Shown piece after piece: positions 1,120 through 7,060 of a stretch of DNA of 10,303 nt. This DNA comes from a virus (Duplodnaviria > Heunggongvirae > Uroviricota > Caudoviricetes), in IMG/VR virus record IMGVR_UViG_2681813186_000015, one strand, 5' to 3'. A model generated the notes under the pieces. That model made no database searches, had not been told where the DNA came from, and worked only from the letters and a program-made list of their open reading frames with translations. The position numbers and the translations under genes were made by a program. Each line of letters begins with the position of its first letter. The stretch's first letter is position 1.

Positions 1120-1229
1120 ATGCCCTCCATAGTAACCACGAATAAAAAATACAATATGTACTTCTCAAATACAAGTAAAAATACACATTGTGCATGGATG
1201 GTTCCAGTACAGAGCGTAATAATAAGGAC
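1120..1229. promoter_or_regulatory. Divergent OR-like operator/promoter region (PR towards cro, PRM towards cI)
   Basis: Two 15-bp near-palindromes: AATACAATATGTACT (1148-1162) and ATACACATTGTGCAT (1182-1196), with TACA/TGTA half-sites. Candidate PR on minus strand: -35 TTGTAT (1174-1169), 17-nt spacer, -10 TATTTT (1151-1146). Candidate PRM -10 AATAAT (1218-1223) would start transcription near the cI ATG (leaderless, as in lambda). Confidence 0.55.
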
Positions 1230-1889
1230 ATGAAAATGAAATGGTATGAACTGGCTAGATCCAGAATGAAAGAGCTCGGCATAACTCAAGAGAAGTTAGC
1301 CGAAGAGCTAGGTATGACGCAGGGTGGAATTGGACACTGGTTGCGCGGATCTCGTCATCCATCTCTTAGTGATATTGGTGTGGTGTTTAAATACCTTGGT
1401 ATTGATAACATATCATTCAACCACGACGGGACATTTTCACCTGTTGGCGAATACTCATCGGCCCCAGTTAAAAAACAATATGAGTACCCTGTTTTTTCTC
1501 ATGTTCAGGCTGGGATGTTCTCTCCAGAACTCAGAACCTTTACCAAAGGTGATGCGGAGAGATTGGTAAGCACAACCAAAAAAGCCAGTGACTCTGCATT
1601 CTGGCTTGAGGTTGAAGGTAACTCAATGACCGCACCAACAGGTTCCAAACCTAGTTTTCCTGACGGGATGTTAATTCTGGTTGACCCTGAGCAAGCTGTT
1701 GAGCCCGGCGATTTCTGCATAGCCAGACTTGGTGGTGATGAATTTACCTTCAAGAAACTGATCAGGGATAGCGGTCAGGTGTTTCTACAACCACTAAACC
1801 CGCAATATCCAATGATCCCATGCAATGAGAGTTGTTCCGTTGTGGGGAAAGTTATCGCCAGCCAATGGCCTGAAGAGACGTTTGGGTAA
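1230..1889 (+). CDS. cI: CI-like prophage repressor, N-terminal HTH plus C-terminal S24 (LexA-like) self-cleaving peptidase domain
   Basis: [24 protein letters not shown]; Ala-Gly cleavage site in HVQAGMFSP; catalytic Ser in EGNSM and Lys in FTFKKL. The track start at 1188 is a TTG; first ATGs are at 1194, 1230 and 1236. 1230 was chosen because it fits a leaderless PRM transcript; 1236 has better spacing from AAGGA (1224-1228). Confidence 0.9.
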
Positions 1890-4449: not shown

Positions 4450-4584
4450 ATGATGCACTTTCAGCTCGCGGGTAGCGGCGTCATGTCCGCTTTCTACCCG
4501 CACGAATCTGAATTATCACGCCAAGTTAAACAATTAATCAGAGCAGCAAAGAAACAACTGGAGGCGTTATGCGCAATGAAATAG
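4450..4584 (+). CDS. cIII: CIII-like small protein (candidate FtsH inhibitor protecting CII), 44 aa
   Basis: ATG 4450 with AAGGAG (4438-4443) 6 nt upstream; MMHFQLAGSGVMSAFYPHESELSRQVKQLIRAAKKQLEALCAMK resembles lambda CIII (…YAIAGWPVAGCPSESLLDRITRKLRDGWKRL…, from memory); position after N as in lambda and P22. The track ORF start at 4345 spans the terminator and was rejected. Confidence 0.5.
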   Translation: MMHFQLAGSGVMSAFYPHESELSRQVKQLIRAAKKQLEALCAMK

Positions 4585-4721
4585 CCATTAATCACCAGAT
4601 GCTTCGTGCTGCACAGAACAAAGCAGTAATAGCCCGATTTATTGGTGATTCAAAAATGTGGCTTGAAGCAAATAAAGCGATGAAATCAGCTATCAACCTT
4701 CCGTGGTATCGCAGGAAATGA
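4569..4721 (+). CDS. kil: Kil-like small protein (tentative), 50 aa
   Basis: ATG 4569 with GGAGG (4560-4564) 4 nt upstream, overlapping the cIII-like stop; MRNEIAINHQMLRAAQNKAVIARFIGDSKMWLEANKAMKSAINLPWYRRK; the IARFIGDSKMW segment resembles the FIGDEKM region I recall in lambda Kil; gene order cIII then kil as in lambda. Confidence 0.4.
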   Translation: MRNEIAINHQMLRAAQNKAVIARFIGDSKMWLEANKAMKSAINLPWYRRK

Positions 4722-4975: not shown

Positions 4976-5683
4976 ATGGATTTGAACAAATTCGATGAGC
5001 CATTCAGCCCTGAAGATATCGAATGGCGAATACAGCAAAGCGGTAAAACACGCGATGGAAAGGTGTGGGCTATGGTGCTGGCTTATGTCACGAACAGGGC
5101 AATCATGAAACGCCTGGATGATGTTTGCGGCAAAGCAGGATGGCGCAATGAATACCGCGATATTCCCAACAACGGCGGCGTTGAATGCGGCATATCAATA
5201 AAGATTGATTCCGAATGGGTAACCAAATGGGATGCTGCTGAAAACACGCAGGTAGAAGCCGTCAAAGGTGGTCGTTCCGGTGCAATGAAGCGCGCTGCCG
5301 TTCAGTGGGGAATCGGTCGGTATCTGTATAACCTTGAGGAAGGTTTCGCACAAACATCTCTCGATAAAAAGCAGGGGTGGCACAGGGCAAAACTGAAGGA
5401 TGGAACAGGATTTTACTGGCTCCCTCCATCGCTTCCGGGATGGGCAATCCCAGCATCAGATAACAAACCATCACCAGAAAATACCAACCAGAAATCTCCA
5501 TCGGTTGACTGCGAACAAATCCTGAAAGACTTCAGCGATTATGCGTCAACAGAAACTGACAAGAAAAAACTCATCGAGCGTTATCAGCGTGACTGGCAAT
5601 TAATGGCTGGCAACGAGGAAGCGCAGGCTAAATGCGTTCAGGTAATGAACATCAGAGTTAACGAACTAAAACAGGCGGCATAA
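4976..5683 (+). CDS. Rad52/22-family single-strand annealing protein (phage recombinase, Sak/Erf functional analogue)
   Basis: 235 aa; IMKRLDDVCGKAGWRNEY and KGGRSGAMKRAAVQWGIGRYLY match conserved Rad52 N-terminal-domain signatures; GAGG upstream; directly followed by ssb. Confidence 0.8.
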   Translation: MDLNKFDEPFSPEDIEWRIQQSGKTRDGKVWAMVLAYVTNRAIMKRLDDVCGKAGWRNEYRDIPNNGGVECGISIKIDSEWVTKWDAAENTQVEAVKGGRSGAMKRAAVQWGIGRYLYNLEEGFAQTSLDKKQGWHRAKLKDGTGFYWLPPSLPGWAIPASDNKPSPENTNQKSPSVDCEQILKDFSDYASTETDKKKLIERYQRDWQLMAGNEEAQAKCVQVMNIRVNELKQAA

Positions 5684-6190
5684 ATGGCAAGCAGAGGCGT
5701 AAATAAGGTGATTATCCTTGGTCGGGTAGGACAAGACCCGGAAGTTCGATACTCACCATCAGGAACAGCGTTCGCTAACCTGACAATAGCCACGTCAGAA
5801 CAATGGCGAGATAAAAATACTGGCGAGCAAAAGGAATTGACTGAATGGCATCGTGTTGCTGTATCCGGGAAACTGGCTGAGGTCGTGGGGCAGTATGTGA
5901 AAAAAGGTGATCAGATTTATTTCGAAGGAATGCTGAGAACCAGAAAGTGGAAAGACCAGTCAGGGCAAGACCGTTACACAACCGAGGTTCATGTCGGAAT
6001 TAATGGCGTGATGCAAATGCTTGGCGGCATTGGCGACAGCAAACAACAAGCAGCCAGCAGGCAATCACAGAAGCCACAGCAGCAATCATCACCAGCACAA
6101 CACAACGAACCTCCGATGGATTTTGACGACGATATACCCTTTGCACCAGTAACTCTCCCCTTCCCTCGTCACGCTATTCACGCAATTTAA
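5684..6190 (+). CDS. ssb: Single-stranded DNA-binding protein (SSB), with a 15-aa extension beyond the canonical DDDIPF terminus
   Basis: [23 protein letters not shown]…TEWHRV…[19 protein letters not shown]…MDFDDDIPF is near-identical in pattern to E. coli SSB; the ORF continues [15 protein letters not shown] before TAA at 6188-6190. Start abuts the upstream stop (TAAATG). Confidence 0.9.
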
Positions 6191-6198
6191 GGACTTAC

Positions 6199-6747
6199 AT
6201 GAATCACTTAATGGTTGACCTTGAAACAATGGGCAACGGGCCATACGCGCCAGTTATTTCTATTGGGGCGGTATTCTTTGACCCGAATACCGGAGAAACA
6301 GGAGAAGAGTTCTCGGTAAATATCTCGCTTGAGTCATCAATGCGATATCGGGCGCGTCCTGACGCTTCAACGATTTTATGGTGGATGGAACAGAGTGAAG
6401 AAGCCAGAAAATCGCTAACCAGCAACACTCAAGAGCTTTCAACGGCTCTTTCATGGTTATCTGAATTCATCATAAAGAACGCTAACCACAAATTCGTTCA
6501 GGTTTGGGGGAATGGAGCATCATTTGACTGCGTTATTCTCCGAAACAGTTATTCGCTGACAGGGCAGCCAGTTCCGTGGCAGTGGTGGAATGACCGCGAC
6601 GTAAGAACAATCGTCGAACTTGGGAAGGTAATAGGATTCGACCCTAAGCGAGATATGCCATTCAAAGGAACTCGCCACAACGCGCTTGATGATGCCATTC
6701 ACCAAGCCAAATACGTTTCAGCGATCTGGAAAAAGTTAGCTAAATAA
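6199..6747 (+). CDS. DEDDh-family (DnaQ-like) 3'-5' exonuclease
   Basis: 182 aa; Exo I motif MVDLETMG, Exo II WGNGASFD, Exo III RHNALDDAIHQA (H-x4-D); AAGGA 5 nt upstream of ATG 6199. Confidence 0.75.
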   Translation: MNHLMVDLETMGNGPYAPVISIGAVFFDPNTGETGEEFSVNISLESSMRYRARPDASTILWWMEQSEEARKSLTSNTQELSTALSWLSEFIIKNANHKFVQVWGNGASFDCVILRNSYSLTGQPVPWQWWNDRDVRTIVELGKVIGFDPKRDMPFKGTRHNALDDAIHQAKYVSAIWKKLAK

Positions 6748-6763
6748 TCAACAGGAGAAAACC

Positions 6764-7060
6764 ATGCCAGCGCCTCTGTATGGTGCGGATGACGCGCGCC
6801 GCTGTTCCGGCAATTCCGTATCGGAGGTGCTGGATAAATTCAGGAAAAACTACGACAGGATAATGTCGCTACCGCAGGAAACGAAAGAGGAAAAGGAATT
6901 TCGCCACTGTATATGGCTTGCAGAGAAAGAAGAACGCGAGCGAATTTACCAGACATCAATCCGACCATTCCGCAAAGCCACATATACCCACTTCCCTGAA
7001 TATATCGACCCGCGCCTGCGTAATTACCGCTCACGCTATGGCGCTATCAGTAATGGTTGA
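6764..7060 (+). CDS. Hypothetical protein, 98 aa
   Basis: ATG 6764 with AGGAG (6753-6757) 6 nt upstream; basic and acidic stretches; no homology recognised. Confidence 0.6.
   Translation: MPAPLYGADDARRCSGNSVSEVLDKFRKNYDRIMSLPQETKEEKEFRHCIWLAEKEERERIYQTSIRPFRKATYTHFPEYIDPRLRNYRSRYGAISNG

Follow-up and report, generated by a model that had tools for sequence, protein, structure and literature searches.

An extended C-terminal tail of phage single-stranded DNA-binding proteins, apparently portable and toggled by a mobile endonuclease cassette

ExoI, RecQ, RecO, chi, and DnaG take the final Phe of SSB, the bacterial protein that binds single-stranded DNA, into a hydrophobic pocket, around which basic residues bind the aspartates of the acidic C-terminal tip (SSB-Ct) and probably also the C-terminal carboxyl group (PMC3632105). 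Here, we analyze the ssb gene carried by a 10,303-nucleotide stretch of Caudoviricetes DNA (IMG/VR record IMGVR_UViG_2681813186_000015; hereafter, the window), the product of which contains the tip MDFDDDIPF followed by 15 further residues. The open reading frame (ORF) at 5684-6190 encodes an SSB of 168 residues (PF00436) that, as an earlier note made from the DNA letters had read it, continues for 15 residues past the tip before its stop codon, and the span 6116-6190 singled out in that note corresponds exactly to the tip, the extension, and the stop.

The window protein is a bona fide SSB, with an OB fold recognized by Pfam, a low-complexity disordered linker, and the D-D-D-I-P-F tip. In an AlphaFold2 monomer model built from a 47-sequence alignment, residues 11-110 have block-mean predicted local distance difference test (pLDDT) scores of 69-89 and form, with confidence, a beta-barrel-type fold of beta-strands and one helix, while residues 114-165 score below 50 and make up a disordered tail. 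This tail is not docked onto the OB fold in the model, and its only structure is a weak beta-hairpin of low confidence at residues 157-167, which is uninformative on function. Like SSB-Ct and its copies, P1 Ssb and phage SSBs included, the window tip belongs to the same OB fold and follows a disordered linker, and its nine residues are those that end E. coli SSB (PDB 1eqq/4mz9). In contrast to SSB-Ct, the window tip does not lie at the extreme C-terminus, since 15 conserved residues follow F153, and its Phe has no free alpha-carboxylate.

Several described systems come close to this arrangement. In phage T7, the SSB gp2.5 and the primase-helicase gp4 share acidic C-terminal tails that dock on T7 DNA polymerase, and the Vequintavirinae likewise use one tail type on both kinds of protein (Mydovirus KB57_040 and the primase/helicase of KpS8 and rec6). 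However, the T7 tails are unrelated in sequence and end in an aromatic residue. The extended tail is also present in lambdoid prophages without a DNA polymerase gene of their own, which speaks for a host partner. Other phage SSBs keep the tip on foreign scaffolds, as is also the case for the tip here. The HK620 SSB (SSB-2, HkaK) requires its C-terminal NDYPPF to stimulate Sak4 (PMC5928155), and is thus a recombination-module SSB with a functional C-terminal hexapeptide; a 244-residue family of tail carriers described below looks HK620-type, but the HK620 SSB ends ...PPF whereas these related proteins end DDDIPF+APIGLPFPSHSIYAL. Bas52_0087, a Vequintavirinae two-OB SSB-like protein that triggers DRT10, contains an FDDDIPF motif in its C-terminal region (bioRxiv 10.64898/2026.04.29.721553). 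The phrog_4477 proteins of rV5_ev158, KB57, and Kashira, taken here as the same kind of protein, carry the tip and the extension, so that Bas52_0087 would be expected to carry the extension as well, on a scaffold that differs from that of the window SSB.

A conserved cap after the aromatic residue is absent from phage and plasmid copies of the SSB tip, from the HK620 SSB, and from T7 gp2.5 and gp4. A 2025 survey of lambdoid recombination modules sorted the genes concerned here into SSB-1, DnaQ-like nuclease, and HNH nuclease types and expressly left the "shuffling of partner interaction domains" unexamined. The extension is not mentioned in that survey, in the Sak4/HK620 paper, in the DRT10 preprint, or in the Hna paper, and no description of it was found among 8 million papers by string or keyword search. 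A PDB sequence search with two versions of the tail retrieved only the tip of E. coli-type SSBs, the extension being present in no chain. Within these collections, the extension is apparently undescribed.

Conservation of the extension

The window ssb is at least 99% identical to the gene of phages HK75, mEp235, and mEpX2 and 88.8% identical to that of the Salmonella phages epsilon34 and g341c. Related sequence occurs in 411 of 5,426 complete E. coli genomes, with at least 80% of the gene covered in 303; in 170 E. coli records, the identity is 99% or higher. We searched the whole protein against a collection of 5.8 billion proteins and examined the best 120 homolog clusters: exactly 15 residues follow [IV]PF in 111 of them, while the remaining nine either end at PF (seven clusters) or are truncated or frameshifted (two clusters). 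The genera represented among these best clusters include Escherichia, Salmonella, Klebsiella, Citrobacter, Enterobacter, Kluyvera, Phytobacter, and Pluralibacter. The sole length variant among the best 120 matches is P0001 (165 residues; Salmonella serovar Eko; a cluster of 588 members), which ends three residues short of the usual 15, a shortening that may be genuine or may come from a different frame or stop.

The earlier note had raised a recent loss of the stop codon, and an accidental read-through into intergenic spacer, whether by stop loss or through a sequencing or assembly error, is one account of a buried tip. An open stretch of 15 codons after a gene is indeed not improbable (a chance of about 0.5, (61/64)^15), and the open frame itself is not unusual; what lies beyond chance is the conservation of the extension. 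That the gene recurs at 99% identity or more in HK75, mEp235, mEpX2, and 170 E. coli records argues against a sequencing error. A recent stop loss is refuted by the fixed length in 111 of the 120 best clusters and by the existence of at least 62 distinct versions across phages of Enterobacterales and Vibrio, which differ mostly by synonymous or conservative changes with a coding-type substitution pattern. We consider that the distribution rules out stop loss and sequencing error alike, and the probability that we leave to them is negligible. The alignment with other prophage ssb genes that the note had called for thus found the extension conserved; the note had also foreseen that its view would fall if the extension were a common conserved feature with demonstrated normal partner binding, and the first half of this description, common and conserved, holds.

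In an alignment of 47 homologs taken from the whole-protein search without regard to the tail, P155 and L158 of the extension are invariant and A154, P159, F160, R162, H163, and I168 are conserved in at least 90% of the sequences; Q122 is the sole conserved column of the linker. When all sources are pooled, 62 distinct extensions conform to A-P-[VI]-[GT]-L-[PQ]-[FY]-[PGA]-[RKS]-H-x-I-[HY]-x-[IL], and their last residue is always hydrophobic. Conservation is unbroken across the Phe/Ala boundary, where the sequence runs D-D-x-P-F-A-P-[VI]-[GT]-L-[PQ]-[FY].

To describe selection on the extension, a degenerate DNA pattern of the tail that fixed 6 of the 15 residues was scanned against IMG/VR, yielding at least 120 loci; all the matches listed are true tails, and the values below refer to these matches. 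They comprise 38 unique nucleotide versions of the 45-nucleotide (nt) extension, among which synonymous change is abundant. The ratio of nonsynonymous to synonymous differences (pN/pS, Nei-Gojobori) is 0.27 over all 15 codons and 0.41 over the 9 pattern-free codons, compared with about 0.10 for the tip, and the entropies at codon positions 1, 2, and 3 are 0.52, 0.25, and 1.20 over all codons and 0.72, 0.34, and 1.27 over the free ones. In addition, the +1 frame contains a stop codon in 26 of the 38 versions. The variation at third positions, the pN/pS below 1, and the stops in the +1 frame are marks of selection on coding in the ssb frame: the extension is a genuine, conserved peptide on which purifying selection acts in this frame. 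An element acting at the DNA or RNA level was considered as the main constraint and rejected on account of the synonymous variation; a secondary role of the DNA as an insertion site remains.

Further searches delimited the occurrence of the tail. The pattern scan of species-representative bacterial genomes gave 18 matches, all labeled Enterobacterales except for one contig of 799 kb (L159; CACSKA010000001.1), which is labeled Chryseobacterium sp. 18061 and contains a prophage ssb of enterobacterial type that has the extension; this record is probably mislabeled or contaminated and likely enterobacterial. A phmmer search of 1.84 billion representative proteins with the last 30 residues returned 13 matches, all of 51-120 residues and most of them evident ssb fragments. 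A protein-database search with concatenated tails returned 20 matches, all of 28-86 residues, and did not find a new carrier family.

A tail shared by different carrier proteins

A tblastn search of 50,697 phage records with the tip plus extension as the query matched 549 records; in 204 of these, the match spans 80% or more of the query. Most tail carriers in IMG/VR are classical SSBs, and the identity of their OB domains between subtypes falls to as little as 25%, for example in the "MAINTI..." type. For a family of 244-residue carriers, neither a Pfam match nor significant similarity to the window SSB was seen. This family matches phrog_743 ("single strand DNA binding protein"), its gene adjoins one for a Sak4-like ATPase, and on account of this match and this neighbor it looks to be of the HK620 "SSB-2" kind. 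Locus L094 represents a further divergent tail-bearing type. Beyond these proteins, the tail ends two-OB SSB-like proteins of rV5/phi92-like lytic phages as well as DNA primase/helicases (Table 1). The tail of the Vequintavirinae primase/helicase reads, over the tip and 15 residues, ..DDDTPFAPIGLQYAKHAIYVI.

The tip and the extension therefore stand together on scaffolds unrelated in sequence, and they move as a single, portable C-terminal unit some 25 residues long, the core of which is D-D-x-P-F-A-P-[VI]-[GT]-L-[PQ]-[FY]...[RK]-H-x-I-[HY]-x-[IL]-COOH. The module ranges over temperate and lytic phages of Enterobacterales and Vibrio. Four "Campylobacter phage" records, A145, A112b, A13b, and D1 (MG065645.1, MG065682.1, MG065677.1, and MG065646.1), match the SSB-like genes of rV5/phi92-like phages of E. 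coli with scores equal to those of E. coli phages, which makes their assignment to Campylobacter jejuni as a host doubtful.

An endonuclease cassette at the Phe/Ala boundary

Some close relatives of the window ssb end at the tip. In Sf6, in Huey, and in a prophage of enterotoxigenic E. coli (ETEC1702), the SSB terminates directly after ...DDSDIPF or ...DDEIPF and is followed by an ORF of 155-159 residues, the product of which ends in ...KPIYPDE[EA] plus an ssb-type tail. The ssb genes of the window and Huey are 98% identical, and Huey carries a 468-nt ORF and a spacer after the Phe codon; ECP1 and Sf6 differ by the same presence or absence of the cassette. The nucleotide alignment of the window with Huey falls into three segments: identity extends up to ...GAACCTCC; Huey then has recoded tip codons, a stop, the spacer, and the ORF; and identity resumes from CCAGTAACT to TAA. 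The homology of Huey, Sf6, and ECP1 to the window passes this TAA and then breaks, the exonuclease gene following in the window and abc2 in the others. Since some copies of the cassette retain the Ala codon (..PDEAPVTL..), the alignment places the cassette exactly between the codons of F153 and A154.

The last 14 residues of Sf6 gp26 and of the Huey endonuclease are those of the extension, and the GenBank record of Sf6 states, without explanation, that gp26 shares 14 contiguous residues with "E. coli SSB". The cassette protein matches phrog_2340 ("endonuclease") with E=2.6e-47 and has a weak N-terminal similarity to endonuclease VII; no Pfam family, HNH included, reached threshold, and we take its HHCDY...WLC..CH..WH motif to resemble a His-Me finger. 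Among 63 endonuclease homologs with this core, only 6 have an ssb-type tail, while the other 57 end differently: the tail-less proteins stop soon after ...WHKHNKPIY, with unrelated ends. That distant homologs of the endonuclease lack the tail rules out that it is native to the endonuclease and indicates that it belongs to ssb, the endonuclease being the newcomer. The close relatives in which SSB ends at ...IPF are thus derived, their SSB having been truncated to a free tip by the cassette, which brings in a stop codon for ssb and takes over the final 14-15 ssb codons, with their stop, for its own ORF, which has none.

The cassette is found in complete E. coli genomes as the Sf6 type (98 genomes) and the Huey type (10 genomes), and the Sf6-type ORF has no annotated feature in 8 of the 8 RefSeq E. 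coli matches listed. Seven chimeric ORFs with the appearance of decay (P0131, P0134, P0144, P0173, P0180, P0183, and P0199) join an SSB N-terminus to an endonuclease C-terminus, an endonuclease N-terminus to the DnaQ-like exonuclease, or an Ea22-like N-terminus to the SSB linker and tail; they look like deletion products at the ssb locus.

The boundary has been hit more than once. In the primase/helicase of KB57 (L163 608-2626), the 45-nt extension is replaced after the Phe codon by TAA and an unrelated ORF of 155 residues (KB57_014), whereas the near-identical KpS8 keeps the extension; this indel is a second, independent event at the Phe/Ala boundary. Moreover, endonuclease VII-like genes start inside the extension codons of rV5_ev158 (L165 2044 onward, with the ATG lying within ..CAA TAT GGC..), KE23 (L162 2559-3011), and mEp554 (L129 2520-3083), so that in these three phages two reading frames overlap in the final codons of the extension. 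The tail-coding DNA is a recurrent landing place for endonuclease genes, as is expected of homing endonucleases that target a conserved sequence, and it is probably a homing site. Free-standing homing endonuclease genes are known from phages, for example the seg and mob genes of T4, and the cassette, with its putative endonuclease, resembles them in its presence/absence polymorphism between near-identical alleles, conserved coding target, recoded flanking codons, and decay products. It differs from them in lying inside the 3' end of a host ORF, supplying the stop of that ORF, and borrowing its last 14-15 codons.

The association with endonucleases opens the possibility that the extension is a neutral scar: a tail native to the endonuclease, or to the leader of a homing-endonuclease cassette, would have been fused to ssb upon deletion of the endonuclease gene and kept merely as DNA, as a site for homing or recombination. 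The 14 residues shared by Sf6 gp26, the Huey endonuclease, and the extension, the endonuclease VII-like starts within the extension codons of rV5_ev158, KE23, and mEp554, the chimeric deletion products P0131 and P0134, and the near identity of the extension DNA among E. coli ssb alleles that are otherwise only 73-75% identical all agree with this scenario. However, a scar would not account for the absence of the tail from 57 of the 63 endonuclease homologs with the core motif, nor for an extension with no endonuclease nearby in Kashira, KB57, ALITA, V039C, ECP1, and the window itself. The third-position variation, the pN/pS below 1, and the +1 stops in 26 of the 38 versions listed also speak for a peptide, and we regard a neutral scar as very unlikely.

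Genomic context and possible functions

The ssb gene lies in the recombination module within the early-left operon of a lambdoid prophage, the order of the window module being cI-type repressor, cIII-like, kil, Rad52-like, ssb, DnaQ-like exonuclease, abc2, and Lar-like (Table 1). An ORF of 173 residues on the plus strand (2391-2912) sits between the cI-type repressor and the cIII/kil region, the position of N or rex in lambda; it is conserved and matches phrog_2602, a family of unknown function, from end to end (E=3.5e-102), and a Pfam search of its product gave no family. Profile coverage of the tail varies: phrog_18154, phrog_7364, and phrog_2544 stop exactly at the tip Phe of the window SSB (residue 153), as does phrog_4477 at that of the Kashira protein (residue 398), whereas phrog_44 extends through the window extension, and the family models are thus at odds over where the protein ends.

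Table 1. Features of the window ssb locus, endonuclease cassettes in its relatives, and tail-bearing proteins of other phages (positions without a locus handle are those of the window)
Feature	Position	Strand	Basis or C-terminus
ssb gene, phage SSB of 168 residues with extended C-terminus	5684..6190	+	ORF list; PF00436; phrog_44, E=1.6e-66
OB-fold ssDNA-binding and oligomerization domain, residues 6-104	5699..5995	+	Pfam PF00436, E=1.6e-36
Disordered Q/P/S-rich linker, residues 115-144	6026..6115	+	pLDDT <50; alignment
Acidic tip MDFDDDIPF, residues 145-153 (M145 6116-6118, F153 6140-6142)	6116..6142	+	Sequence
Extension, 15 codons, residues 154-168	6143..6187	+	Homolog clusters, alignment, codon analysis
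TAA stop of ssb	6188..6190	+	Mosaic boundary with downstream module directly after
F153/A154 codon boundary, insertion site of endonuclease cassette in relatives	6142..6143	+	Huey, Sf6, ETEC1702
Rad52/Rad22-family single-strand annealing protein, directly upstream of ssb	4976..5683	+	Pfam PF04098, E=5e-26
DnaQ-like 3'-5' exonuclease (Rv2179c-like), directly downstream of ssb	6199..6747	+	Pfam PF16473, E=2.8e-73
Abc2 anti-RecBCD gene	6764..7060	+	phrog_656 abc2 anti-RecBCD, E=1e-55
cI-type repressor	1188-1889		Window module
kil	4569-4721		Window module
Cassette endonuclease ORF, Sf6 gp26	L001 1984-2463
Cassette endonuclease ORF, Huey	L003 1978-2445
Cassette endonuclease ORF, ETEC1702	L002 about 2067-2546
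Serratia phage Kashira, two-OB SSB-like protein	L125 1340-2578		Tip + extension; phrog_4477, Vequintavirinae
Klebsiella phage KB57 (KB57_040), two-OB SSB-like protein			...APIGLPYGRNFIHCI; phrog_4477
E. coli phage rV5_ev158, two-OB SSB-like protein			Tip + extension; phrog_4477
E. coli phage ALITA (Stephanstirmvirinae), two-OB SSB-like protein			...APIGLQYGRNFLHCF; phrog_4477
Vibrio phage V039C SSB			...APVGLQYGRNLLHVI
Phage mEp554 gp23			...SCVGLQYGKHRIYAL
DNA primase/helicase, Mydovirus KpS8 and rec6	L164 608-2671 (KpS8); L128 518-2581 (rec6)		...GPDDDTPFAPIGLQYAKHAIYVI
DNA primase/helicase, Seunavirus KE23	L162 524-2578		...DMDDDTPFAPIGLQYANHAIYVL

The neighborhood of the gene suggested to the earlier note that the extension might rewire SSB toward phage recombination proteins, and an adaptor role internal to the phage would redirect SSB to the adjacent Rad52-like protein or DnaQ-like exonuclease. 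Such a role has a precedent in the six last residues of the HK620 SSB that Sak4 stimulation requires (PMC5928155), and a Rad52-like gene is upstream in 79 of 113 tail-bearing loci among the IMG/VR matches listed. This majority is nevertheless an effect of sampling lambdoid prophages from E. coli and Salmonella: at the other loci, the upstream product is a Sak4-like ATPase, HNH endonuclease, YqaJ-like nuclease, RecT, or another protein, and some tail-bearing loci have no recombination genes. The DnaQ-like exonuclease is downstream in only 32 of 116 loci among the matches listed, the place being otherwise taken by abc2 and many other genes, and the tail loci of lytic myoviruses again have unrelated neighbors. 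In addition, the tail is found on lytic-phage proteins and on a primase/helicase, and Sf6 and Huey keep the same Rad52-like gene next to an SSB that has only the tip. The variable neighbors speak against a fixed phage partner next door and give no support to a tuning of the tail to the adjacent annealing protein or exonuclease; they point instead to a host partner or to a self-contained function. Thus, of what the note had proposed, a functional variant in the general sense is supported by the conservation, purifying selection, and portability of the tail, but rewiring toward the adjacent proteins is not supported, given the varying neighbors and the primase/helicase carrier, and we hold a phage-internal adaptor to be improbable.

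Another candidate target is suggested by the first half of the extension, in which P-[VI]-[TG]-L-[PQ]-[FY] may mimic the hexapeptides that bind the beta sliding clamp (Hda QLSLPL, Pol IV QLVLGL, and epsilon QTSMAF) and might tether SSB or the primase-helicase to the host clamp. The spacing x-phi-x-L-x-phi, with an aromatic last position, is kept in all 62 versions, so that a [VI]-x-L-x-[FY] pattern is present, and the carriers, SSB and primase/helicase, are replication proteins. Against the clamp, the Gln that marks position 1 of the consensus (QL[SD]LF / QLxLxL) is Pro in 56 of the 62 versions, and the conserved R/K-H-x-I-[HY]-x-[IL] half would be left unexplained; we judge a clamp motif to be quite unlikely as well.

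The main rival to the reading that we favor concerns the other end of the peptide, which could be a C-terminal signal for degradation or processing by a cytoplasmic protease such as ClpXP or FtsH, either limiting the protein level or trimming a pro-SSB to a free tip. The distance to the C-terminus is constant, every version has a hydrophobic last residue, and the end is largely non-polar (A-I-[HY]-A-I-COOH) after R/K-H. Non-polar C-terminal pentapeptides destabilize proteins, which the end of the extension fits, and we presume a resemblance to the ClpX tags of ssrA (..YALAA) and MuA (..RRKKAI), although R/K-H-x-I-[HY]-x-[IL]-COOH resembles these degron classes (ssrA-like LAA and MuA-like RRKKAI) only loosely. 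Furthermore, phages can live with alleles that stop right at the Phe, and the internal tip equals that of host SSB in its degree of conservation, as would be expected if it were eventually exposed. On the other hand, conservation over all 15 residues and into the tip (PFAP-x-G/T-L) is more than a simple degron needs, and ClpXP normally does not stop at a defined residue. Overall, we consider a degradation or processing signal unlikely, although it comes ahead of the clamp and adaptor explanations.

Our preferred reading, on which our confidence is evenly balanced, is that the tip and the extension act as one short linear docking motif of about 25 residues in a disordered tail. A single motif is suggested by the conservation that runs unbroken across the Phe/Ala boundary and by the fixed distance from the tip to the C-terminus. 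In solved complexes of SSB with its partners, the free carboxylate of Phe is bound too, and with an internal Phe this known mode of docking would be unavailable; the extension would append a segment, both hydrophobic and basic, that gives the protein a new terminus, [HY]-x-[IL]-COOH. The target would most likely be a host factor conserved in the carrier bacteria, given that the carrier scaffolds differ and that no phage neighbor is constant, and it could be one of the SSB-interacting proteins, to which the tail would bind in an altered or blocking way, or some other protein. Several points weigh against a docking motif. The AlphaFold2 model of the tail is of low confidence, and the extension is not essential, since phages with an SSB cut to a free tip by the cassette are viable, among them the laboratory phage Sf6. 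The high local identity of the extension DNA also indicates that recent recombination adds to its uniformity within lambdoid phages, and the sequences used for pN/pS stem from a scan in which 6 of the 15 residues were set beforehand; the pattern-free codons and the pattern-independent protein search agree with the pN/pS result.

A bolder and more tentative version of this docking motif can be proposed, in which a "capped SSB tip", a mobile linear motif grafted onto proteins that handle ssDNA, would engage the host network of SSB partners without the Phe carboxylate. Such a tip might be a decoy or an inhibitor of a host nuclease, exonuclease I for example, or a masked tip, possibly freed by proteolysis or by loading onto ssDNA, and the homing-type cassettes would move a phage from one state to the other, capped or free-tipped.

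The extended tail is, in the sequences compared, widespread, portable, and toggled by a mobile endonuclease cassette, and it is invisible in annotations that read "single-stranded DNA-binding protein". Many phage proteins keep the SSB tip perfectly conserved and yet bury it under a conserved peptide of 15 residues, which implies either a reading of the tip that is independent of the carboxylate or a second docking site. This bears on the ways in which phages draw on or obstruct the SSB interactome of the host, on why phage SSBs trigger defenses (Retron-Eco8, Hna, DRT10, and others), and on the choice of the SSB to pair with annealing proteins in recombineering. The cassette, for its part, is an exceptionally clear example of a mobile gene from which the host gene receives its stop codon and which uses the last codons of that gene as its own, and it provides natural isogenic pairs of capped and uncapped SSBs.

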